A stretch of DNA of 64,000 bases from Streptosporangiales bacterium (GCA_009379825.1 WHTA01000016.1:32224-96223), one strand, 5' to 3'; positions 19,244-58,308 are shown, counted from the first letter of the stretch. Numbers and translations: made by a program. The notes: generated by a model not told the origin, from the letters alone.

Positions 19244-22885
<3,642 letters not shown>

Positions 22886-22888
22886 CTG

Positions 22889-23351: not shown

Positions 23352-23448
23352 GGTTGCCTCCCTGGCTAGCATCGGAACGATGGACCCGCTTAAAACATAC
23401 GGAACGCACGCCCCGGTTGTCGACGGGGCACAGTCCACGGGTGGCGCC

Positions 23449-42262: not shown

Positions 42263-42714
42263 CGCGCGTCGACGACCTGGTAGCCGACCTCGCGGAGCAC
42301 GTTGTCCATGGCGATCCGCAACACCGCCGGGTCGCTGGCGTCGATGCGGATCCGCCAGCCGGCCGTGGTGTCGCCGCCCAGATAGCTGCCAGCCACGGTG
42401 ATCCGCTGATCCTGGACGGTGCCTTCGCACGTCATCCAGTGCGGGCTCTGGTGCCACGAGTCGCACCAGACGGCGACCGCCGTGCCCGGGTCGGCGCCGT
42501 CGCCGAGCAGCAGGAAGCCGTCCTGTTCGACACCGTCGGTCGTCCAGGTGTACGCGACGGTGGCGAAGCTGCCGCGCGCCGCCGGTCGCACGGTGGCGGT
42601 GGCCGGTGACTCGCCGTATGGGTCGTCGGGCATCAGCCGCATCCTCGAGGTGCCCACCCAGGTCCCGGTCAGCGCGGCCATCGTCTGCCTGGTGCGGATG
42701 CTCGCTGCGCTCAT
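42247..42714 (-). CDS. Hypothetical protein, DUF1579-like beta-rich domain
   Basis: LTGTWVGTSRMRLMP...FATVAYTWTTDGVEQDGFLLLG...VWCDSWHQSPHWMTCEG...WRIRIDASD...YERA. The family assignment is from memory of the pattern only. Confidence 0.6.
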   Translation of the reverse strand: MSAASIRTRQTMAALTGTWVGTSRMRLMPDDPYGESPATATVRPAARGSFATVAYTWTTDGVEQDGFLLLGDGADPGTAVAVWCDSWHQSPHWMTCEGTVQDQRITVAGSYLGGDTTAGWRIRIDASDPAVLRIAMDNVLREVGYQVVDARYERA

Positions 42715-42751
42715 GGCCCGACCCTAGTGTCGGCCGCCGGCCGTGGCCTCT

Positions 42752-43528: not shown

Positions 43529-43563
43529 TGCCGCACACCATAGTCAGCCGCACCGACAACGGA

Positions 43564-43600
43564 AGCGGGTGGCAACCGACCAGGTCGGTTGCCACCCGCT
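43564..43600. terminator. Perfect 17-bp stem / 3-nt loop hairpin downstream of the MFS gene
   Basis: AGCGGGTGGCAACCGAC cag GTCGGTTGCCACCCGCT, read directly. It sits between the MFS stop (43622) and the araC start (43528). No U-tract. Confidence 0.55.
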
Positions 43601-43621
43601 GCGACAGCTACGAGGGCAGAA

Positions 43622-45004
43622 CTACTCGGCGCCTGCGGCGGCCTTCTGCTTCTCGATGTCGGGGACGTCGGTGCCGCGCACCGACGCTCCCGCGGTCTCC
43701 TTCGCGAAGTAGACGGCGATCAGGCCGACCACGCTCGCGGCCATCAGGTAGAACGCGGGGAAGTAGTTGCCGATCTTCTCCGTGCCCCAGGTGTTGATCG
43801 CCGGCGTCGGTCCACCGGCGAGCGCCGTGGCCACGTTGTAGGTGAGCGCGAACGCGAAGTACCTGATGTGCGTGGGGAACATGGCAGGGAACGTCGCGGA
43901 GATCGTGCTCAGCTGCGGCACGTAGACGATGCCGAGCCCGACGAGCGCGAGGATCTTCACCGGGATCGGCGCGTTGAGCATCAGGTAGAACGCCGGCAGG
44001 GCGAGGACGAACAACGCCGTGCCGGAGAAGAACCACGACGGGCGCCTACCCCATCTGTCGGACGCGGAGCCGCCGAGCGCCATCAGCGCCATCATCACCG
44101 CGTACATGATCGCCGTGAGGCCGAGTGCCCAGTTCTCGCTGAGTCCTGCGCCCTTCGGGTTGCCCAGGTAGCTGACCATGTACGTGAACAACGTGTAGTT
44201 GTGCACGTTCAGCATGAGCACCATGCCGAAGCAGATGACGATGGGCTTCCAGTGCTTCGCCAGGTCCTTGAACTGCGCCGCGGTCTGCTGCTCCTGGGCG
44301 CCTTCGGCCGCCAGCTCCTTGAAGACCGGGGTGTCCTCCAGCTTCGACCTCATGTAGAGGCCGAACAGGCCGATCGGTCCGGAGAGCAGGAACGGGATCC
44401 GCCAACCCCACGAGTCGAAGTCCGCCTGGCCAACGATGGTGAGCACCAGCAGGCTGACCCCGGTGCCGGCGAGGAACCCGGTCAGCGTGCCGAACTCCAG
44501 GAAGCTGCCGTAGAAGCCGCGCTTCTTGTCCGGCGAGTACTCGGCCATGAACGTCGCGGCGCCCCCGTACTCCCCGCCGGCCGCCAGGCCCTGCACGACA
44601 CGCATCAGCACGAGGATGATCGGCGCGACCACCGAGATGGTGGAGAAGCTCGGGATACAACCGATGATGAACGTGCCACCAGCGATCAGGATGACGGTGA
44701 AGGCAAGGATCTTCTGCCGACCGACGCGGTCACCGATGGCGCCGAAGATTCCCGCACCCAGCGGTCGCACCACGAACGGCACCGCGAAGATGGTGAAGAC
44801 GAGCATCTGCCGCAGGAATGCCGGCATGCTCTCGGGTAGGAAGTGGATCCCGATCTGAGCGCTGAGGAAGCCGTACAGCCCGTAGTCATACCACTCGATG
44901 GCGTTGCCGATCGCCGAGCCGGCGATCGCACGATGCAACGTCTTCTTCTCTTCTTGCGGCGAAAGTCCGCCAGCCCCTGCGGGTGCGGCTTCCTGTGACC
45001 CCAT
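43622..45004 (-). CDS. MFS transporter, metabolite:H+ symporter (MHS; ProP/KgtP-like)
   Basis: GSAIGNAIEWYDYGLYGFLS...VRPLGAGIFGAIGDRVGRQK with 12 hydrophobic segments. GGAGGTGACCC precedes the ATG. Confidence 0.9.
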   Translation of the reverse strand: MGSQEAAPAGAGGLSPQEEKKTLHRAIAGSAIGNAIEWYDYGLYGFLSAQIGIHFLPESMPAFLRQMLVFTIFAVPFVVRPLGAGIFGAIGDRVGRQKILAFTVILIAGGTFIIGCIPSFSTISVVAPIILVLMRVVQGLAAGGEYGGAATFMAEYSPDKKRGFYGSFLEFGTLTGFLAGTGVSLLVLTIVGQADFDSWGWRIPFLLSGPIGLFGLYMRSKLEDTPVFKELAAEGAQEQQTAAQFKDLAKHWKPIVICFGMVLMLNVHNYTLFTYMVSYLGNPKGAGLSENWALGLTAIMYAVMMALMALGGSASDRWGRRPSWFFSGTALFVLALPAFYLMLNAPIPVKILALVGLGIVYVPQLSTISATFPAMFPTHIRYFAFALTYNVATALAGGPTPAINTWGTEKIGNYFPAFYLMAASVVGLIAVYFAKETAGASVRGTDVPDIEKQKAAAGAE

Positions 45005-45112
45005 CGGGTCACCTCCTCTGGGTTTTCGGTTTGCTCTGTCTAGTCGAACCGCCGCCGAGCGCGTCCGGCCGGGGTTTGCCGGATGCTCAGCGATCCCCCT
45101 TGTTTCGAACGG

Positions 45113-46372
45113 CTAGCCGCCTGCGACCCCTGTCGCGACGGACTTCTCCCAGATATCGATCGCCGCGTCGACCTCATCGGCATTCACGACGAGTGCGGGG
45201 ATCATGCGTACCACGTTGCCGTGGGCACCGCACGTTAGCAGGAGCAGCCCGTTCTCGGCAGCCGTCTGCTGTACCCGGTTTGCGGTGGGTGTGTCGGGAC
45301 GTCCGTCGGCGTCGACGAACTCCGAACCGAGCATCAGTCCGAGTCCACGGACGTCGCCGATGCCCTTGTGCTGTGCTGCTACGTTGCGTAGTCCCGCTTC
45401 GAGCCGGCTGCCCATCGCCTTCGCGTTGGTAACAAGCCCTTCGTCGTCGATGACGTCCAGGGTGGCCAGCGCAGCCGCGCACGAGACCGGGTTGGCGCCG
45501 TAGGTGCCGCCCTGCGAGCCGGGCCAGGCCTTGCTCATCACCTCCTCGCTCGCCGCGATCGCCGACAGTGGGAACCCGCTTGCGATGCCCTTGGCGATGG
45601 TGAGCACGTCCGCCCGCACGTCGAAGTGGTCGTGCCCCCAGTACTCGCCGGTGCGCCCGAATCCGGTCTGGATCTCGTCGACGACGAGCAGGATGCCGTG
45701 CTTGTCGGCACGCTCCCGCAGGCCCGCGAGGAAGCGGGTGTTCGCCGGCACGTAGCCGCCCTCACCGAGCACCGGCTCCACGAAGAACGCGGCGGTGTCG
45801 TTCGGCGGCGCGGTGGTGGCGAGCACGTAGTCGAGCTCCTGCAGCGCGAAGTCGGTCGCCTGCTCGACGGTCCAGCCGTACCGGTACGCGTTCGGGAACG
45901 GCGAGACGACGATGTTGGACGGCAGCGGCCCGATGCCGGCGCGGAACTTCGGCCCGGACGTGGTCATCGCGGCCGCGCCGTAGGTGCGGCCGTGGAACGA
46001 GCCGTGGAAGACCACGATGTTCTGCTTGCCGGTGGCCTGCCGTACCAGCCGCATGCTGGCCTCGATGGCCTCGCTGCCGGAGTTCACGTAGAACAGCCGG
46101 TCCAGGCCGGCGGGGAGCGCGCTGCCGAGCCTGGCGGTCAGGTCGCGCAGCGGCTTGCTCAGGATGGTCGTGTACTGGCCGTGGATCAAGGTGGCGACCT
46201 GGCGCTGGGCCGCCTCCACTACCTTCGGATGGCAGTGGCCGGTCGAGGTGACGCCGATCCCGGCGGTGAAATCCAGGTACTGCCGACCCTCGTCATCGTA
46301 GATGTAGACGCCCTCGCCACGGGCTGCGTGGACGGGCGTTGCTTGCTTGAGCTGTGGCGACAGCTCGGTCAT
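45113..46372 (-). CDS. gabT: Class-III PLP aminotransferase (4-aminobutyrate aminotransferase-like)
   Basis: Motifs DFTAGIGVTSTGHCHP, NSGSEAIE, LLVVDEIQTGFGRTG and a TIAKG Lys motif. ATG 46372 follows GAGGAG. Confidence 0.9.
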   Translation of the reverse strand: MTELSPQLKQATPVHAARGEGVYIYDDEGRQYLDFTAGIGVTSTGHCHPKVVEAAQRQVATLIHGQYTTILSKPLRDLTARLGSALPAGLDRLFYVNSGSEAIEASMRLVRQATGKQNIVVFHGSFHGRTYGAAAMTTSGPKFRAGIGPLPSNIVVSPFPNAYRYGWTVEQATDFALQELDYVLATTAPPNDTAAFFVEPVLGEGGYVPANTRFLAGLRERADKHGILLVVDEIQTGFGRTGEYWGHDHFDVRADVLTIAKGIASGFPLSAIAASEEVMSKAWPGSQGGTYGANPVSCAAALATLDVIDDEGLVTNAKAMGSRLEAGLRNVAAQHKGIGDVRGLGLMLGSEFVDADGRPDTPTANRVQQTAAENGLLLLTCGAHGNVVRMIPALVVNADEVDAAIDIWEKSVATGVAGG

Positions 46373-46388
46373 GGGCTGCTCCTCGTAG

Positions 46389-46402
46389 GATTGTTGACAA
46401 TC
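46389..46402. promoter_or_regulatory. Palindrome GATTGTTGACAATC in the gabT / gabD divergent region (candidate GntR operator)
   Basis: Read directly. The 6-bp arms are exact reverse complements with a 2-nt spacer. It is an identical 14-mer to the site at 51709. Confidence 0.55.
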
Positions 46403-46540
46403 GCGCAGCATACAAACTCACCCGCGGGGAGAACAGTACCTGCGTCTCAAAGATTGACATTGCGTGAACGGGGGAGGTGGTTGGACGGCCGCTCTGCGTA
46501 GGCTGGCAGCAGGAGTTCGCGGACAAGGAGTGTTAGCTAC

Positions 46541-48010
46541 ATGACCAGTACGCAAGAGACCGCGGTGGTGGATGCGGTCCGCAAGGAGCTCTTCATCGAC
46601 GGTGTCTGGCGCCCCGCCGAAGGAGGCAAGGTATTCGACGTCGAGGACCCTTCGACCGGCAAGCCGCTCTGTTCGGTGGCCGACGGCTCCTCTGCCGATG
46701 GTTTCGCTGCGCTCGACGCCGCGACCGCCGCACAGGCGTCCTGGGCCGCCACCCCGCCGCGGGAGCGCGGCGAGATCCTGCGCCGGGCGTACGAGAAGGT
46801 GGTGGCCAGGAAGGACGAGCTCGGCCTGCTCATGACGCTTGAGATGGGTAAGCCGGTCGCCGAGGCCACCGGTGAGATCCTCTACGCGGCCGAGTTCCTC
46901 CGCTGGTTCGCCGAGGAGGCCGTGCGGGTCGAGGGCGGCTACCAGACGTCGGCGGACGGCAAGAGCCGAGTGATGATCATGCGCCAGCCGGTCGGGCCGT
47001 GCCTGTTGATCACGCCGTGGAACTTCCCGACCGCGATGTTCACCCGCAAGGTCGCACCGGCGCTCGCGGCCGGCTGCACCGCAGTGTTCAAGCCGTCCGA
47101 GTTCACCCCGCTGTCGGCGCTCGCGATGACGGAGATCTTCACCGAGGCAGGGCTGCCTGCCGGCGTGCTCAACGTGGTGCCGACCACCGACGCCGGTGGC
47201 CTGATGGAGCCGTTGATCAAGGACGGCCGGGCCAGGAAGCTGTCGTTCACCGGGTCCACCGCGGTGGGCAAGAAGCTGCTGGCGCAGTGCGCCGACAACG
47301 TCATGCGCACGTCGATGGAGCTCGGTGGCAACGCGCCGTTCATCGTCTTCGAGGACGCGGACGTCGACCAGGCGGTCGACGGCGCGATGCTCGCGAAGAT
47401 GCGCAACATCGGCGAGGCCTGCACGGCGGCCAACCGGCTGTACGTGCACGAGTCGGTGGCCGAGGAGTTCTCCCGCAAGCTCGCCGACAAGATGGGCGCG
47501 CTGACCGTCGGCCGCGGCGTGGACGACGGCGTGAACGTCGGCCCGCTGATCAACAGCCAGGCGGTGGAGAAGGTCGACCGGTTGGTCACCGACGCCGTCA
47601 GCAAGGGCGCGACGGCGGTCATCGGCGGCCAGCGCGGCGACGGCGACGGGCACTTCTACCCGCCGACGGTGCTCACCGACGTGCCGGTCGACGCCGACCT
47701 GCGGCGTGCGGAGATCTTCGGCCCGGTCGCTCCGATCGTCACGTTCGGCAACGAGGAGGAGCTGCTCGAGCAGGCCAACGACACCGAGTACGGCCTGGTG
47801 ACGTACGTCTTCACCACGAACTTCGCCCGCGCGCTGCGGGTGTGCGAGCGGCTGGAGAGCGGCATGGTCGGCCTGAACCAGGGCATCGTGGCCAACGCCG
47901 GCGCCCCGTTCGGCGGGGTGAAGCACTCCGGCCTCGGCCGGGAGGGTGGCCGGCTCGGCATCGAGGAGTTCCTCGAGGTCAAGTACATCGCTACACCGAA
48001 CCCGCACTGA
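46541..48010 (+). CDS. gabD: NAD(P)+-dependent succinate-semialdehyde dehydrogenase (aldehyde dehydrogenase family)
   Basis: 489 aa with ITPWNFP, FTGSTAVGK, MELGGNAP and EACTAANR (catalytic Cys). AAGGAG lies upstream of the ATG. Confidence 0.9.
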   Translation: MTSTQETAVVDAVRKELFIDGVWRPAEGGKVFDVEDPSTGKPLCSVADGSSADGFAALDAATAAQASWAATPPRERGEILRRAYEKVVARKDELGLLMTLEMGKPVAEATGEILYAAEFLRWFAEEAVRVEGGYQTSADGKSRVMIMRQPVGPCLLITPWNFPTAMFTRKVAPALAAGCTAVFKPSEFTPLSALAMTEIFTEAGLPAGVLNVVPTTDAGGLMEPLIKDGRARKLSFTGSTAVGKKLLAQCADNVMRTSMELGGNAPFIVFEDADVDQAVDGAMLAKMRNIGEACTAANRLYVHESVAEEFSRKLADKMGALTVGRGVDDGVNVGPLINSQAVEKVDRLVTDAVSKGATAVIGGQRGDGDGHFYPPTVLTDVPVDADLRRAEIFGPVAPIVTFGNEEELLEQANDTEYGLVTYVFTTNFARALRVCERLESGMVGLNQGIVANAGAPFGGVKHSGLGREGGRLGIEEFLEVKYIATPNPH

Positions 48011-48034
48011 CCCGGTCACGACGTCCGCGGGTCC

Positions 48035-48068
48035 ACGGCGCGGCTGCCCGGCTGGGTAGCCGCGCCGT
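48035..48068. terminator. 11-bp stem hairpin between convergent gabD and small-ORF array
   Basis: ACGGCGCGGCT gcccggctgggt AGCCGCGCCGT, read directly. Confidence 0.5.
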
Positions 48069-48125
48069 CCCGTCTCACTCGCGTGCCCGGTCACTGCTGG
48101 CGGGACGGCCCGCTTCGCGCGCTCG

Positions 48126-48530
48126 TCACTGGTCCTGCTGGCGGGCCGTACCGCGGTCTGGTGCCGTCGTACGGTGCAGCCGGTCGTAGCCCGCCATGAT
48201 CCGCCGGACCTCGTTGGCGGTGGAGCGGTCGCGGTCGGTGGCGGGGTTGCTCGGCAGTGCCTGACGCAGCTCCTGACGTGCTCCCAGCCACGACTTCCGC
48301 GTCTCCGCGACCCAGGTCTGCGCGGGCTTCGCGCCGCAGGCCTGCTGCTCGCTCAGCGCGTCCATGAATATCTCCCCGTGGCCGAGGACCCTGGCGATCT
48401 GCTCCCGCAGGCCACTCTCCTCGGGTTTCCTGAGCTGGCGGACGAGTAGCGCGAGGGCGTTGCGCTCGCTGTTGACGCTCCCGCGCTCGACCGCCGTTCT
48501 TCGTTGGCTCGTGGTGGACTCGTGCCTCAT
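48126..48530 (-). CDS. Uncharacterised small protein, paralog 1 of a 4-member tandem family
   Basis: ATG 48530 is 4 nt after GAGGAG (MRHESTTSQRR...). It shares the family pattern SERNAL..., IARVLGHGE and W..ARQELRQ with the three upstream paralogs. Confidence 0.5.
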   Translation of the reverse strand: MRHESTTSQRRTAVERGSVNSERNALALLVRQLRKPEESGLREQIARVLGHGEIFMDALSEQQACGAKPAQTWVAETRKSWLGARQELRQALPSNPATDRDRSTANEVRRIMAGYDRLHRTTAPDRGTARQQDQ

Positions 48531-48621
48531 CTGACTCCTCATGTAGGCCGGATGGTCGTCACGCTCCTCGTCGAGCCACCGCTCGCCGGGTCTGTCGCAC
48601 GAGGTGCGGGGGACGCTACGG

Positions 48622-49107
48622 TCATCGCTGTTCCTGGCGCGTGTCGGACGACTGGCTGCGGGGCTTGCGCTCGTCGCGGCGCTCGTCCGGCCGCGGGTTC
48701 GCCCGGGTGGGGGTGCTGCCGCGGGTTTGCTCCAGGTACCTGGTCCTCGCCCGGTCGCGGATCTGGTCCGTCTCGGTCAGGACGCGGGCGATCGTCCAGT
48801 TGGGACGGGTCGACCGCAGGGCCTCGCGTGCGTCACTCCACGTCTGTTGGGCTCGGCCGGGCTCGGTGCGGTCGGCGTCGGTGTTGCTGCCCCACGGGGT
48901 CAGCATGCTGAGCTTGTGGGCGTACCTGTGCCCATGACCAAGGACGGCGCCCGCCTTGGCCATCACGTCCTCGTCGGTCGGGCTTTACCTGACTTCACCG
49001 ACCTGCAGCTCGAGGAGCGCCAGTTCGAGGCGAACGGCGCTGCGTTCGTCGTCGAGCCAGGACGAGTTGCCCATGGCGCGCGCATTGCATGGGGACTCGT
49101 GCGGCAT
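48622..49107 (-). pseudogene. Paralog 2 of the small-protein family, interrupted by in-frame TAA (48985-48987)
   Basis: ATG 49107 follows AGGAGG. It reads MPHESPCNARAMGNSSWLDDERSAVRLELALLELQVGEVR, then a stop, then SPTDEDVMAKAGAVLGHGHRYAHKLSML... in the same frame. The track lists only the distal 114 aa. Confidence 0.5.
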
Positions 49108-49158
49108 CGCGGCCTCCTGTCGGCTCACTCCTCCTCCTGCCGCACGCCGGACGACTGG

Positions 49159-49554
49159 CTACGGGTGGGCCCGGCCGTCGGCCCGGTACCGGTCGGTGGC
49201 CTTGTTGCGGGCCTGATCCGTCTCGGCCAGCAGCTTCTGCACCATCCGGCCGGGGCCGGCCGAGCGCAGCCCTTCGCGCACGTCGGTCCACGCCCGGCGG
49301 GCGCGCTTGGCCTCGGCACGGGTGGCCTCGGTGTTGCTGCTGCAGGCCCGCAGCATGCCCACCTGGTGGGCGTACGCGTGCCCGTGGGCGATGACGGCGC
49401 CCATCTTGTCGACCAGGGTCTTGTCCAGCTGGCCGTACTGGAGTTCGATGTGCATCTGCAGTCGAGACGCCTCGCCGCGTACGGCGTCCCGCTCGTCCTC
49501 GAGCCAGAACGAGTCGGCCGTGTTGCGGGGGTTGCTGGGGAGCTCGAACGCCAT
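49159..49554 (-). CDS. Paralog 3 of the small-protein family
   Basis: ATG 49554 follows AGGAGGAG. Sequence FWLEDERDAVRGE...MGAVIAHGHAYAHQVGML...SSNTEATRAEA...AWTDVREGLRS...AETDQARNKATDRY. The conserved tail PTRSQSSGVRQEEE continues in another frame to 49125. Confidence 0.55.
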   Translation of the reverse strand: MAFELPSNPRNTADSFWLEDERDAVRGEASRLQMHIELQYGQLDKTLVDKMGAVIAHGHAYAHQVGMLRACSSNTEATRAEAKRARRAWTDVREGLRSAGPGRMVQKLLAETDQARNKATDRYRADGRAHP

Positions 49555-49681
49555 CGTGGCACTCCTCCTACCGGGTCGTGGACCCGCTCGGATGTCCCTG
49601 CGGTACGACTGGTTCCGGACCGACGCGGTCTACGACGAAGGGTTACCGAGTGTGCTCGGTCCCGGCAGGAGGGGCGCGCCG

Positions 49682-50143
49682 TCACCGGTCGGGTCGTGCA
49701 GGACCCGGCTTGCGCTCTGCTGGCTCGCGTCGCTCGTCCCGGTCGCGCGTGCTTGTGCGTGCACGGCCCTGGGTCAGCAACCCACGGTGCAAGCCCAGGG
49801 TGTCTTTGAAATGCCCGCGCGTGTCCGCGGTGCGCAGCTCCTTCAGGGCGTCGTGCCAAGCCCCCTGGGACTGCGTTGCCTCGGCGCGGGCCGCCGGGGT
49901 GTTGTTCGGGTACGCGGTCAGCAGAGTCAGCTGGACGGCGTAGCGGTGACCGTTGGCCATGGCCGCACCGGCCTTGGTCATCAGCTGCTTGTCCGCATCG
50001 GAGTGCCCGAGCTTGGCCACCCCGCGCTCCAGGAATCCCACTGCGGAGCTGACTCGCTCCCGCTCCCGGTCCACTGCATGCATAGCGGCGACGTTGTCCC
50101 GCGTCTCGGCCGGGATCTCGAACCTGTTCTGGTCACGCTGCAT
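49682..50143 (-). CDS. Paralog 4 of the small-protein family
   Basis: VDRERERV...TKAGAAMANGHRYAVQLTLL...PNNTPAARAEA...AWHDALKELRT. The C-terminal tail is Arg/Asp/Glu rich, like paralog 2. Confidence 0.5.
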   Translation of the reverse strand: MQRDQNRFEIPAETRDNVAAMHAVDRERERVSSAVGFLERGVAKLGHSDADKQLMTKAGAAMANGHRYAVQLTLLTAYPNNTPAARAEATQSQGAWHDALKELRTADTRGHFKDTLGLHRGLLTQGRARTSTRDRDERREPAERKPGPARPDR

Positions 50144-50236
50144 GGTGCGTCACGGTAGTGCCTCGGGTACATGCCGTGGGGTGGTCAGGCGCCGCGTAGC
50201 GCACCGCGGCGGCCGGGGCGCCGCGCGCGGTGGTGG

Positions 50237-50905
50237 TTACTCCAGGTGGTTGGAGAGCCGGTTGATGGCGTCCTGCATGTGGGCGTCGAGGAACTCCAGC
50301 GCGCCGGCGCCGTCGCCGTTCTTGATCGCCAGGACGATCTTTTCGTGCTCGTTCACCAGGTCGGACGACGTGCTGTACATCGGGGGCAGGGCGGAGAGGC
50401 ACATCCGGGTCTCGACCAGCAAGGTGGTGGCCATCCGCTGCAACCGCGGGCTCTCCGAGGCCGCGACGAGCGCCTCGTGGAACGCCAGGTCGGCCTTGCT
50501 CAGCGCCGCCGAGTCGCCACGGTCCGCCGCCCTGGTCATCTTGGCCAGCACCTTCGCCAGGGTGGCCGCGGTGCGTTCCGGGTGGCGTTCCAGGATCAGC
50601 CGCACGGCGGCGCTCTCCACCGCCGTGCGCGCGGCGTAGATGTCGATGATGTCCGCCGTGGTCAGTTCGGTGACGAACAGCCCGCGGTGGCGTACGGCGC
50701 GCAGCAGTCCCTCCTGGACGAGACGCTGCATCGCCTCGCGCACCGGCCCGCGACTGACGTTGAACCGCTGGGCGAGGTCGACCTCGCCCAGCTGGTCGCC
50801 CTGCGCGAACGCGCCGGACATGATCGCTTCCCTGAGCTGGTCGGCGATCAGCCCGGCGGTGGCTTGCCGGCTGATCGGCTTGAGTCCATCGGCTGACGCC
50901 GCCAT
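50237..50905 (-). CDS. GntR family (FadR/FCD type) transcriptional regulator
   Basis: GDQLGEVDLAQRFNVSRGPVREAMQRLVQEGLLRAVRHRGLFV plus an FCD helical domain. It lies 20 nt downstream of the isomerase-like gene. Confidence 0.9.
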   Translation of the reverse strand: MAASADGLKPISRQATAGLIADQLREAIMSGAFAQGDQLGEVDLAQRFNVSRGPVREAMQRLVQEGLLRAVRHRGLFVTELTTADIIDIYAARTAVESAAVRLILERHPERTAATLAKVLAKMTRAADRGDSAALSKADLAFHEALVAASESPRLQRMATTLLVETRMCLSALPPMYSTSSDLVNEHEKIVLAIKNGDGAGALEFLDAHMQDAINRLSNHLE

Positions 50906-50925
50906 GTGAGGGCTCCTCGTGCCGG

Positions 50926-51684
50926 TCAGTTCGTTGCCGGCGCGGCACCGCCGGCGCTTCGATTCTCGAACAACGTGCCGAGCCCGGTGCGCGGTGTGGT
51001 GTCACCGGCCAGCCGCAGGCCCTCCCACGCGGTCACCTGGTTCGCGGTGAGCACCGGTTTGCCGACCCGCGCCTCCAGGGCGTCGAGCCAGGCGACCGAG
51101 TGCAGCGCAGTGTCGGGCAGCAGCACCGCGTCTGCGTCCGCGTGGTCACCGCCGACGGCCAGCGCGAGGACGGCAGCCTCGTCGAGCGTGCCCACGTCGC
51201 CGGCCAGGAAGATGCCCTCGCTGCCGAAGTTGACCACGTCCAGGCCGCCGTCGCCGAGGAACTCCACGAACTTGCTCGCCACGTCCTCCGGGTACGTGGC
51301 CGCGACCGCGACCCTGCGGGCGCCGACCGCGTGGCAGGCGCGCGCGAACGCGATCGACGTGCTCGACGCGGGGGCGCCGGCCGTCTCCGTCAACGTGCGC
51401 GCCTGTTCCGCGGCACCGTCCCAGCCGAACACGAAGCTGCCGCTGGTGCACGCCCACACCACCGACTGCGGCTGATGGTGCGCGGTGAGCTGGCGCCAGC
51501 CGGCGGCGAGCTCCTCCGGCTGGCCGACGGCGAGCAGCGCCTCGACCGTGTGCGGAACGTCCTGCTCAGTGGTGTGTACCAGCGGCAACGCGACGTCCGG
51601 GCCGAGCAGTTTGGCGAGCAGCGGGTAGTCGTCCTCGGCGGCATGACCCGGGTAGAGCATGCCAACGGTCGTGCGTGTAGTCAC
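50926..51684 (-). CDS. Asp/Glu-racemase superfamily protein, maleate-isomerase/arylmalonate-decarboxylase-like, paralog 1 (Cys/Asp variant)
   Basis: VGMLYPGHAAEDDYP, first catalytic motif WACTSGSF, and LLPDTAL in the second position (Asp where paralog 2 has Cys). GTG 51684 is 5 nt after ACGGAGG. The track start, TTG 51720, lies inside the palindrome. Confidence 0.8.
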   Translation of the reverse strand: MTTRTTVGMLYPGHAAEDDYPLLAKLLGPDVALPLVHTTEQDVPHTVEALLAVGQPEELAAGWRQLTAHHQPQSVVWACTSGSFVFGWDGAAEQARTLTETAGAPASSTSIAFARACHAVGARRVAVAATYPEDVASKFVEFLGDGGLDVVNFGSEGIFLAGDVGTLDEAAVLALAVGGDHADADAVLLPDTALHSVAWLDALEARVGKPVLTANQVTAWEGLRLAGDTTPRTGLGTLFENRSAGGAAPATN

Positions 51685-51708
51685 GGCCACCTCCGTGTAC
51701 GACGGGAA

Positions 51709-51742
51709 GATTGTTGACAATCCTACTCTGCGTTTCTACCGT
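51709..51742 (+). promoter_or_regulatory. Palindrome GATTGTTGACAATC (51709-51722) overlapping a promoter-like TTGACA (51714-51719) -17 nt- TACCGT (51737-51742) facing the dehydrogenase gene
   Basis: Read directly. The -35 hexamer is embedded in the palindrome. The spacing was counted by hand. Confidence 0.55.
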
Positions 51743-51791
51743 CAGCCTGGTCCAGTACTTACGAAACTTGCGAAATCCTTGGTGGTGATAC

Positions 51792-53024
51792 ATGCCAGCG
51801 AAGACCGCGCGGCGACCGTACCTGAGGGTGATCTGGTCCGACCCGGAAAGTGACGCGACCGGATACCTGGTGGTCGATCGGCTGGTCACCGGCATCGGCA
51901 CTGGCGGGCTGCGAACGCGCGCCGGTTGCACCCTGGAGGAGGTCGAGGACCTCGCCAGGGAGATGTCGCTGAAGGTCGGCGCCTACGGCGTGCCCGTCGG
52001 GGGCGCCAAGGGCGGCATCGACTACCCGCCGGACGCCCCCGACGTGGACGAGGTGCGGCTGCGCTACGTCCAGGCGATGCGCCCGTACCTCGACAGCATG
52101 TGGACCACCGCCGCAGACTTCGGCACCCCGCAGGCCAGCTTGGACCAGGTGTTCGAGCGGGCCGGGCTCGGTTCCTCGTCGCTACGCGCAGGCCTGCGTC
52201 GTAGCCCCGACCCGGAGGCGACCGCCGCGGACGTCAAGCGGCAGTTCGTCGACGGCGAGGAGGGCCTCACCATGCCCGCGCTGATCGGCGGGTACGGCGT
52301 CGCGGAGGCAGGCCTGGCCGGCCTGGAAGGGCTCGGCATCGCGCCTGCGGAAGCGACCGCGGTCGTCCAGGGCTTCGGTGCCATGGGCGGTTCCACGGCG
52401 CTATACCTGGCGAAGGCCGGGGTGCGGGTGGTCGGCATCAGCGACGCGCAAGGGCTGCTGGTGAACACCGAACGCGGCCTGGACGTGCCGGCGCTGCTCG
52501 CGGCGCGCTCGCCCGCGGGTGCCATCGACCGTGCGGTGCTGCGGTCGGACGACACCGAGCTGCCGGGCAGCGCCTGGCTCGACCTCGACGTCGACCTGCT
52601 GGTGCCGGCGGCGGTCTCGTACACGATCACCACGCAGAACTGCGCGCAGGTCAAGGCGCGGTTGATCGCCGAGGCGGCGAACGTCCCCATCACCCCGGAC
52701 GCGGAACGGTCGCTCACCGACCGCGGCGTGGTCGTCGTCCCCGACTTCGTCGCGAACGCGGGTGCGGCCGTCTGGGCGTGGTGGGTCGTGCTCGGCCTGG
52801 TGACCGGTCCCGCCGATTCCCGTTCCCTCCTCTCCAAGCATGTGCGGCCGCTGGTCGGCCAGCTGATCGATGCCTGGCGGGAGAACTCAACCCCACCCCG
52901 CGAAGCCGCTGCGCGGATCGCGGAGGAGAACCTTGCCCGCAACGTGGAGCGCTACGGCGGTGTGGTCGAACGCGTTCCGCTGTTCGAGGCAGGAGCACAA
53001 GCAGCAGGACTCACCAGGAGCTGA
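51792..53024 (+). CDS. Glu/Leu/Phe/Val dehydrogenase family protein
   Basis: GVPVGGAKGGIDY (catalytic Lys motif) and an NAD domain (AVVQGFGAMGGSTALYLAKAGVRVVGISD). 410 aa. Confidence 0.9.
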   Translation: MPAKTARRPYLRVIWSDPESDATGYLVVDRLVTGIGTGGLRTRAGCTLEEVEDLAREMSLKVGAYGVPVGGAKGGIDYPPDAPDVDEVRLRYVQAMRPYLDSMWTTAADFGTPQASLDQVFERAGLGSSSLRAGLRRSPDPEATAADVKRQFVDGEEGLTMPALIGGYGVAEAGLAGLEGLGIAPAEATAVVQGFGAMGGSTALYLAKAGVRVVGISDAQGLLVNTERGLDVPALLAARSPAGAIDRAVLRSDDTELPGSAWLDLDVDLLVPAAVSYTITTQNCAQVKARLIAEAANVPITPDAERSLTDRGVVVVPDFVANAGAAVWAWWVVLGLVTGPADSRSLLSKHVRPLVGQLIDAWRENSTPPREAAARIAEENLARNVERYGGVVERVPLFEAGAQAAGLTRS

Positions 53025-53035
53025 AGGGAACGGAA

Positions 53036-53536
53036 GTGGCCAGATACATCGAGATCTCGTTGGACAAGCGCGGCGTGAGTTGCACCGCCGTGCTGTTGGA
53101 CGAGCAGGCGCCCCGCACCTGCGAGGCGGTGTGGAACGCACTGCCGATGGGCAGCGACGCGTACCACGCGAAGTACGCGCGCAACGAGATCTACACGCTC
53201 GTACAGGCGTTCGCCGACCCGGAGCCTGGCAGGGAGAACACCACCATCACCCCGATCCCCGGTGACGTCGCGTACTTCTCCTTCGAGAAGTGGCAGATCG
53301 CGACGCCGTCGCACGGGTACTCGTCCGCGGAGGAGGCCCACAAGGGCGCCGACATCGTGGACATCGCGCTGTTCTACGAGCGCAACAACCTGCTGCTGAA
53401 CCCGGACTACGGGTTCGTGCCGGCCAACATCTTCGCGACCATCGTCGAAGGCCTGCCGGAGATCGCGGCCGCGAGCCAGGACCTCTGGAAGCGTGGCGTG
53501 GAGGGCGAGACCCTCTCCATCCGCCGCAAGGAGTAA
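53036..53536 (+). CDS. DUF3830-like (cyclophilin-like fold) protein
   Basis: GTG 53036 follows GAAGGGAA. The sequence IEISLDKRGVSCTAVLLDEQAPRTCEAVWNALP...GDVAYFSFE resembles DUF3830 members as I recall them. Confidence 0.7.
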   Translation: MARYIEISLDKRGVSCTAVLLDEQAPRTCEAVWNALPMGSDAYHAKYARNEIYTLVQAFADPEPGRENTTITPIPGDVAYFSFEKWQIATPSHGYSSAEEAHKGADIVDIALFYERNNLLLNPDYGFVPANIFATIVEGLPEIAAASQDLWKRGVEGETLSIRRKE

Positions 53537-53619
53537 CGCACCGACCGGGCACAACCCGGTCGTACCGAACCGACCCCCTGGCCGACAGCGGCCAGGGGGT
53601 CGGTCTGTCGAGCGGTGGG

Positions 53620-54420
53620 TCAGGCGAAGAGGCGCTGGCCGTTCGGTGGTGGCGTGATGCCGCAGGCGCGCAGCGCCGCCCACATGGTCACCTGGTTGGC
53701 GGAGAGCACCGGCTTGCCGAGTGCCTCCTCCAGCGGCGGGATGGCGTCGTACGTCGGCAGGTTGGTGCAGCTGAGGAAGAGCGCCTGGGCGTCCGGGTGG
53801 TCCGCGTCGACGCCGAGCTGTGTCACCTCGTCGTAGCCGACCTGCCAGATGTGGTCGAGCAGCCCCAGGTGTGCGCTCGACGTGACGGACACCCCGGCTT
53901 CGCCGAGGAAGTCGTGCAGCCGGACGGTGACGCTCTCCACGTACGGTGTGGCGACGGCGATGCGTTTGATGCCGAGGTGCTCCAACGCCTCGAGCAGTGC
54001 GCCTGACGTGGTGAGCGCGGCCGGGGCGCCGGTGGTGGACATGGCCTCGCGCAGCTCGCGTTCGCCCTCCATGCCGCCGACGAAGCTGCCGGACGTGCAG
54101 AGGTACGCGACCACCTCGGGCTCCGCGGTGAGCACTTCGGCGGTGCCGGACTGCACGATGCTGGTCTCGCTGACCAGCTGTGCCATCTCGACGGTGACGG
54201 GCACGGCGAGGCGGGGCGTGCGGGTGACGTACAGCGACACGTCGTCGGGCACCCAGCGCCAGACCTCCCGGTCGAGCGCGAAGTCGTACGGCGCGACGAT
54301 CCCGACGCCGTGCTGGGGCAGCAGCGGTATCGGCACGGTGACCCGAACCGTGTTCGCGGGGGCGTCGAGCGCGACGGCCTCGGCGGTTTCAGTGGCAGCC
54401 CGCTGCCCGTCCAGGTCCAA
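53620..54420 (-). CDS. Maleate cis-trans isomerase family protein (Asp/Glu racemase superfamily), paralog 2 (Cys/Cys)
   Basis: Both catalytic Cys motifs are present (YLCTSGSF and LFLSCTNLPT). TTG 54420 is 7 nt after AAGGAG. Confidence 0.85.
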   Translation of the reverse strand: MDLDGQRAATETAEAVALDAPANTVRVTVPIPLLPQHGVGIVAPYDFALDREVWRWVPDDVSLYVTRTPRLAVPVTVEMAQLVSETSIVQSGTAEVLTAEPEVVAYLCTSGSFVGGMEGERELREAMSTTGAPAALTTSGALLEALEHLGIKRIAVATPYVESVTVRLHDFLGEAGVSVTSSAHLGLLDHIWQVGYDEVTQLGVDADHPDAQALFLSCTNLPTYDAIPPLEEALGKPVLSANQVTMWAALRACGITPPPNGQRLFA

Positions 54421-54480
54421 TCACCCACTCCTTTCCCCAGCAGCCGCATGCTCACAGAACACTAGTGTCCCGGCTCCAAG

Positions 54481-54494
54481 AGTTGTTGACAATC
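54481..54494. promoter_or_regulatory. Variant palindrome AGTTGTTGACAATC in the divergent region between isomerase paralog 2 and the 2-hydroxyacid dehydrogenase
   Basis: Read directly. The core TTGTTGACAATCCTAC is shared with the site at 51711. TATGTT (54507-54512) lies 6 nt before GTG 54519. Confidence 0.5.
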
Positions 54495-54518
54495 CTACGA
54501 TTGCTGTATGTTTCGCGC

Positions 54519-55484
54519 GTGTCCGCACGTCCAACGATCGCCGTTCTCTGCAAGGACTCACGGCCGCCGAAGATGGCCGAGGTCGAGGCCCTTGCCGAGG
54601 TACGTTACGCCTCCGCCGCCGAGCTGCCCACTGCCGTTGCAGGTGCCGACGTGCTCTTCATGTGGGACTTCCTCTCCTCGGCCCTCGTCGACGCGTGGCC
54701 GGCCGCCAGGCAGCTGCAGTGGATCCACCAGGCCGCGGCCGGGGTGGACAAGGTGCTGCTGCCCGAGGTGGTCGCCAGCGACGTCGTCGTCACCAACTCC
54801 CGCAACGTCTTCGACCAGGCGATCGCCGAGTACGTGCTCGGCCTAGTGCTTTCGTTCGCGAAGGACTTCCCGCGCACGCTCGAGCTGCAGCGCGAGCACA
54901 CCTGGCAGCACCGCGACTCCGAGATGATCGCCGGCAAGCAGGCCGTCGTCGTCGGGGTGGGGCCGATCGGCCGGGCGACCGCCAGGTTGCTGCGCGCTGC
55001 CGGCCTCCGGGTGCGCGGCGTCGGCCGTACGGCGCGTACCGGCGACGAGGACTTCGGCGACGTGCTCGCGTCGAGCGACCTGCTGCAGGTGCTGCCTGGC
55101 GCCGACTACGTGGTCGTCGCCGCCCCGCTGACTCCCGCCACCCGCGGCATGTTCGACGCCGCGGCGTTCGACGCCATGCAACCGACCGCCCGGTTCGTGA
55201 ACATCGGGCGGGGTGAGATCGTGGTGCAGGACGAGATGGTCGAGGCACTGGTGACCGAGCGGATCGCGGGCGCCGCGCTCGATGTCTTCGAGGAGGAACC
55301 GCTGCCTGCCGATTCGCCGCTGTGGGAGATGCCCAACGTCGTGGTCTCACCGCACATGTCCGCGGACTTCATCGGCTGGCTGGACGTGCTCGCCGACGTG
55401 TTCGTGGACAACTTCACCCGGTGGCACGCAGGGCAGTCACTGCGCAACGTGGTGGACAAGCAGCTGGGTTACGTCGCTTCGTAG
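54519..55484 (+). CDS. D-isomer-specific 2-hydroxyacid dehydrogenase, NAD-binding
   Basis: Motifs VVGVGPIGRATARLL, NIGRGEIV, DVFEEEPLP and SPHMSA. I prefer GTG 54519 to the track start 54465, which would run through the palindrome. Confidence 0.85.
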   Translation: MSARPTIAVLCKDSRPPKMAEVEALAEVRYASAAELPTAVAGADVLFMWDFLSSALVDAWPAARQLQWIHQAAAGVDKVLLPEVVASDVVVTNSRNVFDQAIAEYVLGLVLSFAKDFPRTLELQREHTWQHRDSEMIAGKQAVVVGVGPIGRATARLLRAAGLRVRGVGRTARTGDEDFGDVLASSDLLQVLPGADYVVVAAPLTPATRGMFDAAAFDAMQPTARFVNIGRGEIVVQDEMVEALVTERIAGAALDVFEEEPLPADSPLWEMPNVVVSPHMSADFIGWLDVLADVFVDNFTRWHAGQSLRNVVDKQLGYVAS

Positions 55485-55508
55485 GCTGCGTATATTTCAA
55501 TCGAGTCG

Positions 55509-56927
55509 ATGGGACTGTCGATGACTACCGAGGTCGCGCACCTCACCGCCACCGAGTTGCTGGCGGCGTACGAGAAGAAGGAGCTCTCGCCGGTCGAGGC
55601 GACGCAGGCGGCGCTCGACCGGATCGCCGCCGTGGACGAGCAGCTCAACGCGTACTGCCTGGTCGACGCCGACAGTGCGCTCGGGCAGGCCAGGGAGTCC
55701 GAGCAGCGGTGGCAGCGTGGTGAGCCCGCCGGTCCGGTGGACGGCGTGCCGACGTCGGTCAAGGACATGTTCCTCACCCGCGGCTGGCCGACACTGCGCG
55801 GTTCCCGCACGGTCGACGCCGACCAGAAGTGGGAGGCGGACGCGCCGTGCGTCGCGCGGCTGCGGGAGAGCGGTGCGGTGCTCGTCGGCAAGACCACCAC
55901 CCCCGAGCTGGGCTGGAAGGGTGTCACGGACAACCCGCTCACCGGCGTGACGCGGAACCCGTGGGACCTCACCCGCACGCCCGGTGGCTCGAGTGGCGGC
56001 AGCTCCGCGGCGGTGGCCGCGGGGATGGCGCCGCTGTCCGTGGGTACCGATGGCGGCGGGTCCGTCCGCATCCCCGGCGCGTTCAGCGGCATCTTCGCGC
56101 TGAAGCCGACGTACGGCCGGATCCCGCTCTACCCGTCGAGCCCGTTCGGCACCCTCGCGCACGCCGGCCCGATGACCTGGACCGTGGACGACGGCGCGCT
56201 GCTGCTCGACGTGATCAGCGCACACGACGCGCGGGACTGGTCGGAACTGGCGCCGCCGGTGGGGTCGTTCGTGGACGCGCTCGGCGACGGCGTGCAGGGG
56301 CTGCGCATCGCGTTCAGCCCCGACCTGGGGTTCGTGGACGTGCACCCGGAGGTGGCCGCGGCCGTCCGCGACGGCGTGGCGGCCTTCGGCGCGGCCGGCG
56401 CGCACGTGGAGGAGGCGTCCCCGGGCTTCGCCGACCCCGTCGAGACGTTCAATGTGCTCTGGTACTCGGGCGCGGCGAAGTTCGTCGAGCCGCTCACCGA
56501 CGAGCAGCGCGGGCTGCTCGACCCTGGGCTGCGCGAGATCTGCGCGCAGGGCGCGACGTACTCCGCGCTGGACTACCTGGAGGCGACGGCGCAGCGGATG
56601 GCGCTCGGTGTGGCGATGGGCGAGTGCCACGAGAACTACGACCTGCTGGTGACGCCGACCATGCCGATCCCGGCGTTCACCGCCGGCCGCGAGGTGCCCG
56701 AGGACTGGTCGCAGCCGCGGTGGACGAGCTGGTCGCCGTTCACCTACCCGTTCAACCTCACCCAGCAGCCGGCGGCGACGGTGCCGTGCGGGTTCACCGC
56801 GAGCGGGCTGCCGATCGGCCTGCAGATCGTGGGCCCGCGGCACGCCGACGCCGCCGTGCTCGCGGCGGCGAAGGCGTTCCAGGACGCCAAGCCCTGGACG
56901 GCCACCCGCCCCACCCTGGAGTCCTGA
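55509..56927 (+). CDS. Amidase-signature family amidase
   Basis: GVPTSVKD (catalytic Lys) and GGSSGGSSAAVAAGMAPLSVGTDGGGSVRIPGAFSG (Ser-cisSer signature). Confidence 0.9.
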   Translation: MGLSMTTEVAHLTATELLAAYEKKELSPVEATQAALDRIAAVDEQLNAYCLVDADSALGQARESEQRWQRGEPAGPVDGVPTSVKDMFLTRGWPTLRGSRTVDADQKWEADAPCVARLRESGAVLVGKTTTPELGWKGVTDNPLTGVTRNPWDLTRTPGGSSGGSSAAVAAGMAPLSVGTDGGGSVRIPGAFSGIFALKPTYGRIPLYPSSPFGTLAHAGPMTWTVDDGALLLDVISAHDARDWSELAPPVGSFVDALGDGVQGLRIAFSPDLGFVDVHPEVAAAVRDGVAAFGAAGAHVEEASPGFADPVETFNVLWYSGAAKFVEPLTDEQRGLLDPGLREICAQGATYSALDYLEATAQRMALGVAMGECHENYDLLVTPTMPIPAFTAGREVPEDWSQPRWTSWSPFTYPFNLTQQPAATVPCGFTASGLPIGLQIVGPRHADAAVLAAAKAFQDAKPWTATRPTLES

Positions 56928-56966
56928 CCCGCCGGCCCGGGGCCTGCGGCGCGGCCACAGCCCCAA

Positions 56967-57020
56967 CGCCACGTTGCGGCTTCGTCGTCGTGGTAGCGAC
57001 AGTAAAGCCGCAACGTGGCG
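56967..57020. terminator. 16-bp stem / 22-nt loop hairpin between convergent amidase and XRE-TPR genes
   Basis: CGCCACGTTGCGGCTT ... AAGCCGCAACGTGGCG, read directly. Confidence 0.5.
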
Positions 57021-57099
57021 GTAACTAGGTAGCTCGCGAGTAAGCCTGGGCGGTCGGGCGATCGGACGGGCCGCGAGGTGGCGTTGAGCGCCCTCCCGC

Positions 57100-58308
57100 T
57101 CACTCCAGGCCCAGGGTTCCTGACAGTTCGCGTAGCGCGAGGTCGCCGCCGTGTTCGGTGTGGAGTAGATCGGTCACCAGCGCGATGACGACCGGGTGTC
57201 CGGTGACGAACTCGGGTGCGAGGCTGTGAGCGTAGGTGAGTGCGTCAATGGCTGCCGGCAGGTTGCGGCGCTGCGTGTGGGCGCGAGCGACGTCGAGTTG
57301 GTGTCGCGCCTGGCGTTCCGGGGACAGCGGCGAGGCGTCGAAGGCTTCCGCGACGCGCAGCGCTGCGCCCGCGTCTCCGAGATGGACGGCGACGGTGACA
57401 CGGTGCAGCGTTGCGTTGTCTGGGCCGAACTCCGTGCCGTAGTCGTTGCGTCCGCGCCCGACGCGGCCGGCGAGTTCGTCGGCGGAATCGAGGTGCTTGT
57501 ATGCGGCGTCGGCGTCGGCGTCGGCGTGGTCGAGGCGTGCCTCGGCGAGTGCGGATTGTAGGTGGAGCACGCCAGTCAGAGATAGGGCACCGACGTCGCC
57601 CTCTTCGACGCGTGCTGCAAGCGCATCGATGGCCGACGATGCAGTGCGGAGGGCGTGGGTGTAGTGGCGGGCGCTCTGAAACACGATGCACAGGCGGAAT
57701 GACCCTTCGGCCATCAGCAGCGCATCTCCGGTGCGCTCGGCGGCGGCGATGCCGCGGTCTGCGGCGACCCAGGCGGCTGGGAACTCGCCGAGGTTCGACA
57801 GGACCGCCGCCAGGGCGTGGTATGCGCGAGCGAGCGACACGTACGCCTGTCGTCGGTCGCGGCCTTTCGTCGTGCGGGCTGCGCTTTCCAGCTCGGGCAG
57901 CCGCGCCGCGAGCCGGTCGCGGACGTGTTCGTACTTGGAGGCATGAACGTACTGCCACGCCTCGGATACGGCATCCGCAAGCTCGGTTGTATCGGTCGAG
58001 TCATGGGCCGCGAGGACGGCGGTCAGTGCATCGGAGGACGCGAGCGCGAGCGCCAGATCACCCGCCACACTCGGTGCCTCATGGGCGGCGGCGGGCGTGG
58101 CCGGCGCCAGGTCAGCGACGGGAACGTCGAGAGCATCGGCCAGTCGCTCTAGCACCGACATACGGTCGATGTGCCGTGCGCCGCGCTCGACCTGTGAGAG
58201 CCAGGTCTCGGACCGACCGACCAGCCGGGCGAACTCGCGCTGCGAGAGGCCGCGTTGCTTGCGCAGTCGGGCGATGGTCCGTCCGAGCTGGTTTGAGAGG
58301 TCGCTCAC
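57100..58308 (-). CDS. XRE-family HTH regulator with long TPR-like C-terminal domain
   Basis: LGRTIARLRKQRGLSQREFARLVGRSETWLSQVERGARHI, followed by about 300 aa of helical repeats. Confidence 0.85.
   Translation of the reverse strand: MSDLSNQLGRTIARLRKQRGLSQREFARLVGRSETWLSQVERGARHIDRMSVLERLADALDVPVADLAPATPAAAHEAPSVAGDLALALASSDALTAVLAAHDSTDTTELADAVSEAWQYVHASKYEHVRDRLAARLPELESAARTTKGRDRRQAYVSLARAYHALAAVLSNLGEFPAAWVAADRGIAAAERTGDALLMAEGSFRLCIVFQSARHYTHALRTASSAIDALAARVEEGDVGALSLTGVLHLQSALAEARLDHADADADAAYKHLDSADELAGRVGRGRNDYGTEFGPDNATLHRVTVAVHLGDAGAALRVAEAFDASPLSPERQARHQLDVARAHTQRRNLPAAIDALTYAHSLAPEFVTGHPVVIALVTDLLHTEHGGDLALRELSGTLGLE

Follow-up and report, generated by a model that had tools for sequence, protein, structure and literature searches.

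A recurring palindrome as candidate operator of a local GntR regulator in three divergent promoter regions of a Streptosporangiales gene cluster

A palindrome recurs in three divergent intergenic regions of a Streptosporangiales bacterium, within a stretch of 64,000 nucleotides (GCA_009379825.1 WHTA01000016.1:32224-96223; hereafter the window) of about 70% G+C, and this raises the question of which regulator, if any, reads it and which transcription units it serves. In the present study, we addressed the question by comparing the three sites with each other, with the corresponding loci of relatives and with the published sites of known regulators. Judged by these comparisons, the three palindromes are very probably operators of the local GntR regulator of the FadR subfamily (gntR, 50237-50905, minus strand), the protein that the original prediction had named as the candidate binder.

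An exact search confirmed the repetition that had been reported for this DNA: GATTGTTGACAATC lies on the plus strand at 46389-46402 (operator O1) and again at 51709-51722 (O2), and AGTTGTTGACAATC, a variant copy, lies at 54481-54494 (O3). O1 is 16 nt from the ATG (46372) of a gabT-like gene and 138 nt from the ATG (46541) of a gabD-like gene; O2 is 24 nt from the GTG (51684) of amd1, the gene preceding gntR, and 69 nt from the ATG (51792) of a Glu/Leu/Phe/Val (ELFV)-type dehydrogenase-like gene; O3 is 60 nt from the TTG (54420) of amd2 and 24 nt from the GTG (54519) of hadh, a D-2-hydroxyacid dehydrogenase gene. The continuation of each palindrome with CCTAC in the orientation facing gabT, the ELFV (GDH-family) dehydrogenase and hadh, claimed earlier, is visible at all three sites, on the plus strand at 51722-51726 and 54494-54498 and, for O1, on the opposite, gabT-facing strand (plus strand GTAGG, 46385-46389). 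Such 14-mers had been thought unlikely by chance, and this assessment held: shuffles led us to expect 0.06 matches with at most two mismatches, and none of 100 dinucleotide-preserving shuffles reached the observed count. Furthermore, when a 22-bp weight matrix derived from sites in other genomes was applied to the 64-kb window, the three operators scored 37.6, 29.0 and 24.2 bits, with 4.2 bits for the runner-up place and a maximum of 9.4 bits over 20 shuffles; no scoring site beyond the three operators was found in the window, and weak matches at 27384 and 37599 are chance by the same scoring. A degenerate, half-site-like sequence in the gabD leader, GATTGACATTG at 46452-46462, 50 nt downstream of O1, has no matrix score and is not kept in alignable relatives.

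The sites are retained at the corresponding places in other genomes. Four contigs of related Streptosporangiales (loci L002-L005) carry the same genes in the same arrangement, with regulators 83, 70, 68 and 65% identical to the window GntR; one of them has two-component system and ABC-transporter genes between amd2 and the operon of the ELFV dehydrogenase and DUF3830 genes. GATTGTTGACAATCCTAC occurs in each corresponding divergon present in L002-L005, the hadh site of L003 being an AG variant. An invariant block of 17-18 bp is the sole long conserved stretch in the intergenic alignments (L002-L005, L031, L071, L076, L092). The O1 element is kept in the gabT/gabD divergon of L004, L005, L031, L071 and L092, and the O2 element, amid diverged flanks, in L002, L003, L005, L031 and L071; at the place of O3, where L003 shares the AG variant of the window, GATTGTTGACAATCCTAC is found in at least about 70 actinobacterial loci. 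On the evidence of these alignments, the block in L002-L005 is a classical phylogenetic footprint.

To extend the comparison, the 18-mer RRTTGTTGACAATCCTAC was scanned against one genome per species (185,579 species), which gave at least 120 matching stretches, whereas about 70 chance matches were estimated from base composition; the matched loci were sorted by tblastn with the window proteins. Among the 120 listed matches, 75 belong to the same gene cluster, in Mycolicibacterium/Mycobacterium, Streptomyces, Saccharopolyspora, Amycolatopsis, Actinoalloteichus, Kribbella, Actinomadura, Spirillospora, Segeticoccus and other genera. Eight more have a GntR/FCD gene within 250 nt, 28-48% identical to the window GntR (Burkholderiales, Isosphaeraceae, a Rhodobiaceae metagenome-assembled genome (MAG), Granulosicoccus, Paenarthrobacter and a Firmicute), and seven have one within 8 kb (Inquilinus, alphaproteobacterial MAGs and M. 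vaccae). The other 30 show neither the cluster nor a GntR/FCD gene; ten of them lie in low-G+C genomes and are likely chance matches. In Proteobacteria and a planctomycete, copies of the 18-mer stand beside GntR homologues 30-41% identical to ours (L079, 4311-4328 and 6379-6396; L009, 1840-1857; L105, 4173-4190; L025, 239-256; L075, 43-60), with genes for a HAD hydrolase, an M20 peptidase, an FAD oxidoreductase, a peptide-type binding protein, a carboxyltransferase and an enoyl-CoA hydratase as neighbours. Since the proteobacterial neighbour genes differ from those of the cluster, the element appears to travel with the regulator and not with the enzymes, and the GntR homologues beside the 18-mer in Proteobacteria, Planctomycetes and a Firmicute support the local GntR as the binder. 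From extra sites at cluster loci that the scan had not picked out, we derived the consensus GATTGT(C/T)(G/A)ACAATC, which with a CG centre is a perfect 14-bp palindrome. Many further near-consensus sites, some of them intragenic, lie within 8 kb of the cluster in Kribbella (L018, L070, L078, L082, L107); ATTGTCGACAAT inside genes can encode Ile-Val-Asp-Asn, and these extra sites could reflect an expanded regulon or a coding coincidence.

The regulator itself fits this type of site. The window GntR combines a winged helix-turn-helix at its N terminus (HTH; PF00392, 66 bits, cut-off 27) with a C-terminal all-helical FCD domain (PF07729, 91.9 bits, cut-off 24.3), as do FadR-subfamily proteins such as B. 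subtilis GntR, MdcY and UxuR. Sites of this subfamily are built of TKGT/ACMA boxes, with a 2-nt GT-AC spacing in minority groups, namely GntR, HpxS, HypR, MdcY, PrpR and UxuR (PMC4494728). TTGT-TG-ACAA, 24 nt upstream of amd1-gntR, is a TKGT/ACMA palindrome with this rarer spacing, so the earlier statement that the TTGT..ACAA half-sites fit GntR/FadR operators can be narrowed to the 2-nt-spaced class of the subfamily (PMC4494728). Wherever a cluster locus shows the amd1-gntR operon, a site lies next to it. One divergon site commonly serves both operons in the FadR subfamily, as we propose here; its most studied members, however, differ from the window system in their 3-nt spacing (TGGTnnnACCA), in their targets and in their effector.

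The specificity class can be narrowed further through the recognition helix, which reads NVSRGPVREA in the window GntR. The HTH segment NVSRGP(V/L)REAMQRLVQEGLL hardly varies among the regulators of the cluster and the alphaproteobacterial ones beside the same 18-mer. Compared without gaps, the window HTH is 55% identical to that of PhnR and 43% to that of PrpR, with the same SRGP(V/L)REA helix in each, and the motif published for the PhnR and GntR-type PrpR groups is ATTGT(C/T)(G/A)ACAAT, ATTGTYRACAAT being used by both (PMC4494728 supplement). The part of that supplement covered here has no group with a REAMQRL helix or a GACAATCCTAC flank. The best NCBIfam match of the window GntR is TIGR03338 (phnR_burk), which with 127.2 bits stays far below its cut-off of 271.5; taken with the likeness of the HTH, this places the protein in a separate orthologous group of the same specificity class and not among PhnR or PrpR orthologues. 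Thus, the naming of the local FadR-type GntR as candidate binder gains from three sides, from its travelling with the element, from its homologues beside the 18-mer and from its PhnR/PrpR-like HTH.

Among the closest known systems is PrpR/PmiR (PA0797) of Pseudomonas aeruginosa, together with the GntR-type PrpR group of Gammaproteobacteria, likewise FadR-subfamily GntR proteins with an FCD domain. PA0797 has the HTH ISRGPLREAIHRLEGLRLL, and the site predicted for it ahead of its own operon is GACGATTGTC-GACAATCAAG, in which GATTGTCGACAATC is contained (PMC4494728 supplement). It binds its own upstream region in an electrophoretic mobility shift assay and represses the prp operon (PMC9765439), and its DNase footprint comprises two adjacent protected sites in the prpB promoter, from which it is released by 2-methylisocitrate (PMC9728974). 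The structure 7xp0, whose HTH sequence is identical to that of PA0797, is one of the three best PDB matches of the window GntR (E = 3.7e-18, with modest overall similarity), and a GATTGTCGACAATC-type operator and a helix of the SRGPLREA type, as in PrpR/PmiR, are found in the putative sites and in the window regulator. The targets differ: PrpR/PmiR acts on prpBCD of the methylcitrate cycle, and no prp-type family was found among the cluster and neighbouring proteins scanned, which are part of the window genes. By alignment, D139/H143/H187/H209 of the window GntR appear to preserve the Zn2+ ligands D143/H147/H192/H214 of PmiR (PMC9728974). Among the 2-methylisocitrate contacts of PmiR, R95 is kept (R93 here), and R184 and S218 are replaced by T and A; because of these two replacements we do not expect 2-methylisocitrate to be the effector, which is likely another metal-bound acid.

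PhnR of Burkholderiales (TIGR03338) has the most similar HTH, NVSRGPVREAFRALEQAGLL, at the 55% identity given above. Its predicted sites, ATTGTTGACAAT, lie in divergons, are often flanked by GTAG/CTAC and have a 2-nt spacing; PhnR is autoregulated, and its motif is a comparative-genomics prediction (PMC4494728 supplement). The window sites are of this ATTGTTGACAAT type. The PhnR regulon consists of phosphonate-utilisation genes, unlike the window cluster, among whose proteins no phosphonate-utilisation family was matched, phosphonate-enzyme models not having been searched separately. CsiR of E. coli, a GntR/FadR-type repressor of csiD-lhgO-gabDTP, also controls gabD and gabT. With 66.8 bits against a cut-off of 218 for the CsiR model NF008576, the window GntR is not its orthologue, and CsiR differs from the window system in operator, gene order and co-regulated genes.

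How would a repressor at these sites meet the transcription machinery? Actinobacterial -10 elements follow the rule TAnnnT, and leaderless mRNAs are frequent in Actinobacteria; our promoter calls rest on this rule and on conservation across loci. The TTGACA embedded in O2 (51714-51719) was confirmed to lie 17 nt from TACCGT (51737-51742), and the two probably form the -35 and -10 of a plus-strand promoter (51714-51742) for the ELFV dehydrogenase and DUF3830 genes; at this distance L002, L003 and L005 also have TACCGT, and L031 and L071 have TAGCCT. For hadh and the amidase gene behind it, the predicted plus-strand promoter (54486-54512) has its -35 TTGACA at 54486-54491, inside O3, and after 15 nt its -10 TATGTT at 54507-54512, 6 nt ahead of the GTG at 54519. 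Among the listed matches, a TAnnnT hexamer stands 16-18 nt after the embedded TTGACA in 72 of 97 unique high-G+C occurrences of the 18-mer, most commonly as TAGCGT, TAGCCT or TACCGT, and in 26 of these a GTG or ATG follows the -10 after 5-9 nt. From this spacing and these close start codons, we take TTGACA to be the -35 in the rightward promoters, and the hadh mRNA to be leaderless; the same 72 sites lend weight to the proposal that a bound repressor would occlude the -35. The GTG start is 6-7 nt after the -10 in L003 and L004, and window and L003 are near-identical from just upstream of the hadh GTG onwards.

On the other strand, a putative -10 TAGGAT faces amd1-gntR at 51720-51725 (minus strand), its last three bases being operator positions 14-12 on that strand. 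TAnnAT occurs in this register in all 32 unique amd1-proximal sites, many of them outside the scan selection, as TAGGAT, TAACAT, TAGCAT, TAAGAT, TACGAT or TATTAT. Candidate -10 elements of the same sequence, TAGGAT, face amd2 at 54492-54497 (minus strand; 23/23 amd2-proximal sites, a partly circular count in that most were picked by the 18-mer scan) and gabD at 46386-46391 (plus strand; 9/12 gabD-proximal sites). Toward gabT there is a -10-like TATGCT at 46407-46412 (minus strand), which on this strand precedes O1 by 4 nt, and of 23 gabT sites 10 have a hexamer of the TATGCT/TATCGT/TAGATT type 3-6 nt ahead of the operator; the Shine-Dalgarno sequence GAGGAG of gabT comes directly after the operator. 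A terminator scan of the three operator regions found none.

These leftward elements bear on the meaning of CCTAC. An extended operator half-site would account for the GTAG...CTAC found on both sides in some sites (L058, L092) and for tandem gntR-gabT loci that retain CTAC without a divergent gene. Upstream of amd1, however, only the positions T-A-n-n-A-T are fixed and the middle bases vary, and we therefore prefer to read the flank as the -10 TAGGAT of the opposite-strand promoter, whereby each operator would cover two promoters. Thus, CCTAC is indeed present at all the sites, as the original prediction had it, but it is better explained by the opposite-strand -10 than by an extension of the operator. 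At the hadh site of Actinomadura, Saccharopolyspora and Spirillospora (L035, 2424-2441; L066, 3000-3017; about 35 similar loci), TTGACAATCCTACgaacgcttccTAGCGTGTCAATgcc brings TTGACA/TAGCGT rightward and TTGACA/TAGGAT leftward within about 40 bp, an arrangement resembling a pair of divergent consensus promoters that overlap completely.

Other explanations have to be weighed against operators of the local GntR. Another regulator could be at work, either the second GntR/FCD protein of the window (33720-34430, plus strand), the AraC-type protein (42752-43528), the HTH_31 protein (57100-58308) or one encoded elsewhere. All three genes are present in the window, an AraC gene follows the MFS gene in L004 too, and several Streptomyces gabT/gabD sites have no GntR within 8 kb; yet none of the three accompanies the element across loci, as amd1-gntR does. 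The second GntR, moreover, has a different helix (VARASLRAA) and a longer LPPERE turn, whose extra residue recurred in our comparison in PdhR and LldR2, with their 3-nt-spaced sites, and is lacking in the GntR at 50237-50905, and TTGT-NN-ACAA palindromes are not known as sites of AraC or XRE proteins. Another regulator is thus improbable, and we consider it somewhat less probable still that no regulator is involved and that the block consists of overlapping core promoter elements, a TTGACA -35 on one strand and a TAGGAT -10 on the other. Both hexamers do lie within the 18-mer and behave like promoter elements across loci. Nevertheless, GATTG (positions 1-5) is equally conserved and part of neither hexamer, and the CG-centre sites (GATTGTCGACAATC) at gabT and amd1 lose TTGACA and retain perfect dyad symmetry; on these two grounds the palindrome cannot be reduced to promoter elements. 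The same palindrome is, besides, the predicted site of PhnR and PrpR, and PrpR binding has been shown for a DNA region carrying it.

Action as RNA, through a hairpin of small size in 5' untranslated regions that affects translation or stability, would suit gabT, where 16 nt separate the palindrome from the ATG and the Shine-Dalgarno sequence comes immediately after it. Its stem would be weak, with five or six A/U-rich pairs and a 2-4 nt loop; at hadh, a transcript beginning at the predicted leaderless start would not include the element; the element occurs in both orientations relative to the genes; and an Rfam scan of 42000-58500 gave no family match, all of which makes such a hairpin highly unlikely. 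Least credible of all is chance similarity, a dispersed repeat or a mobile-element remnant, for which the repetition itself speaks and nothing more, and against which stand the shuffle expectation of 0.06 matches, the position kept in orthologous divergons across families and flanks free of repeat structure.

Operators of the local GntR remain by far the preferred reading, and the following points have to be set against it. A GntR gene is visible within the fetched 8 kb in 34 of the 75 listed cluster loci; the co-occurrence of regulator and element is strong and is established across loci rather than genome by genome. The 18-mer scan selects for CCTAC, which makes the site counts at hadh and amd2 partly circular. 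An E. coli-type promoter scan of the three operator regions returned no promoter; our calls follow the looser actinobacterial rule. Finally, the hadh promoter of the window has a spacer of 15 nt versus 17-18 nt in relatives and is a weaker arrangement than theirs; of the proposed leaderless start at GTG 54519, the 6-nt distance and the conserved start codon stand; the short spacer had gone unmentioned.

In the following model, DNA binding by the protein, a repressing and not an activating role, the places where transcription starts and an effector are inferred. Without inducer, a GntR dimer would sit on GATTGT-YG-ACAATC and at each site keep RNA polymerase off two divergent promoters. At the ELFV dehydrogenase-DUF3830 and hadh-amidase promoters the operator would include the -35 TTGACA; at amd1-gntR, amd2 and gabD it would overlap the predicted start of transcription as well as TAGGAT, the -10; and at gabT-MFS it would lie at about +1. 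Transcription would begin near 51749, about 7 nt behind TACCGT, for the ELFV dehydrogenase gene, at GTG 54519 for hadh, and within the operators for amd1 (about 51713), amd2 (about 54485), gabD (about 46398) and gabT (about 46400). With two divergent promoters blocked per operator, three operators would control six transcription units, that of the regulator among them; as had been predicted, gntR would regulate itself, since it follows amd1 in the operon that adjoins O2. A small-molecule intermediate of the pathway would probably free the repressor by acting on the C-terminal FCD domain, and this inducer is probably a carboxylate or hydroxy-acid, with the bound metal ion as its holder.

What, then, do these six units encode? 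The gene calls are supported by Pfam and NCBIfam profile searches. On the left, the gabT-like class-III aminotransferase gene (45113-46372, minus strand) is followed by that of an MFS metabolite/H+ symporter (43622-45004, minus strand); the two are syntenic in L004 and L005 and are probably co-transcribed. Divergent from them is the gene of the gabD-like succinate-semialdehyde dehydrogenase, an aldehyde dehydrogenase (46541-48010, plus strand). In the middle, amd1 (50926-51684, minus strand), encoding an Amdase/EutA-like protein of the Asp/Glu-racemase superfamily, is the first gene of the regulator operon; a 20-nt gap separates it from gntR on the same strand, and the pair is syntenic in L002-L005 and in many of L006-L125. 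Facing it are the gene of the ELFV-type dehydrogenase (51792-53024, plus strand) and, 11 nt behind, the DUF3830 gene (53036-53536, plus strand), whose PDB match is the uncharacterised protein 3kop; the two probably form one operon. On the right, amd2 (53620-54420, minus strand) encodes a second Amdase/EutA-like paralogue, its TTG start and AAGGAG Shine-Dalgarno sequence matching L004. It diverges from hadh (54519-55484, plus strand; GTG start, predicted leaderless mRNA), which is followed after 24 nt, in the same operon, by the gene of an amidase-signature amidase (55509-56927, plus strand; 762.7 bits with NCBIfam NF004815, cut-off 506). PDB sequence searches with the amidase, amd2, ELFV dehydrogenase and DUF3830 proteins returned distant or uncharacterised relatives only and gave no hint of a substrate.

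Tentatively, and with rather more doubt than confidence, we suggest that the regulon marks an undescribed catabolic pathway common to many actinobacterial families and equipped with an 18-bp promoter-operator cassette. Its parts may be the two EutA/Amdase-like isomerase/decarboxylase paralogues, the divergent ELFV dehydrogenase, DUF3830, the D-2-hydroxyacid dehydrogenase and the amidase; the pathway may lead an omega-amino acid into the gabT/gabD shunt, and the inducer may be a metal-chelating acid. In this cassette one set of bases may serve as repressor palindrome, as -35 for one promoter and as -10 for the promoter diverging from it, its letters being the same in Actinobacteria and in Proteobacteria. 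The operator class and its mode of action are already known from the PrpR/PmiR and PhnR regulators. The searchable literature yielded no description of the actinobacterial regulon or pathway and nothing relevant on DUF3830 in Actinobacteria; text searches with 12- to 14-mer operator strings matched unrelated primer sequences only, and the shorter ATTGTCGACAAT matched the PrpR paper. Our results offer a concrete regulatory model for a widely conserved actinobacterial cluster of amide/amino-acid breakdown, with three operators, six promoters and one autoregulated repressor, and extend the PrpR/PhnR operator class to Actinobacteria. They also show how a single palindrome can be fitted into core elements belonging to two divergent promoters. 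The general principles of GntR regulation are left unchanged; the main interest lies in this compact promoter-operator design and in the widely conserved pathway. The repressor-operator pair may serve as a route to the inducer, hence to the pathway, and as an inducible switch for high-GC Gram-positive bacteria.

Additionally, some features beside the cluster deserve mention. Directly downstream of the MFS gene lies the AraC-family regulator gene (42752-43528, minus strand), with an AraC gene at the same position in L004. Between gntR and gabD, at 48126-50143 on the minus strand, there are four small open reading frames without a Pfam match, two of them paralogous, with repeats about 450 nt apart and an AT skew of -0.32. 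L004 has a gas-vesicle cluster at this place, and L002 has DUF2997/radical-SAM genes there; since the slot is thus differently filled, 48126-50143 appears to be a variable insert. Far to the left, a different 13-bp palindrome, ATTGTTCAACAAT (22890-22902), is found where a hydantoinase/oxoprolinase gene (19244-22894, minus strand) and a TetR-family gene (23035-24006) diverge from each other across a gap of 140 nt, and is probably the operator of this TetR protein.

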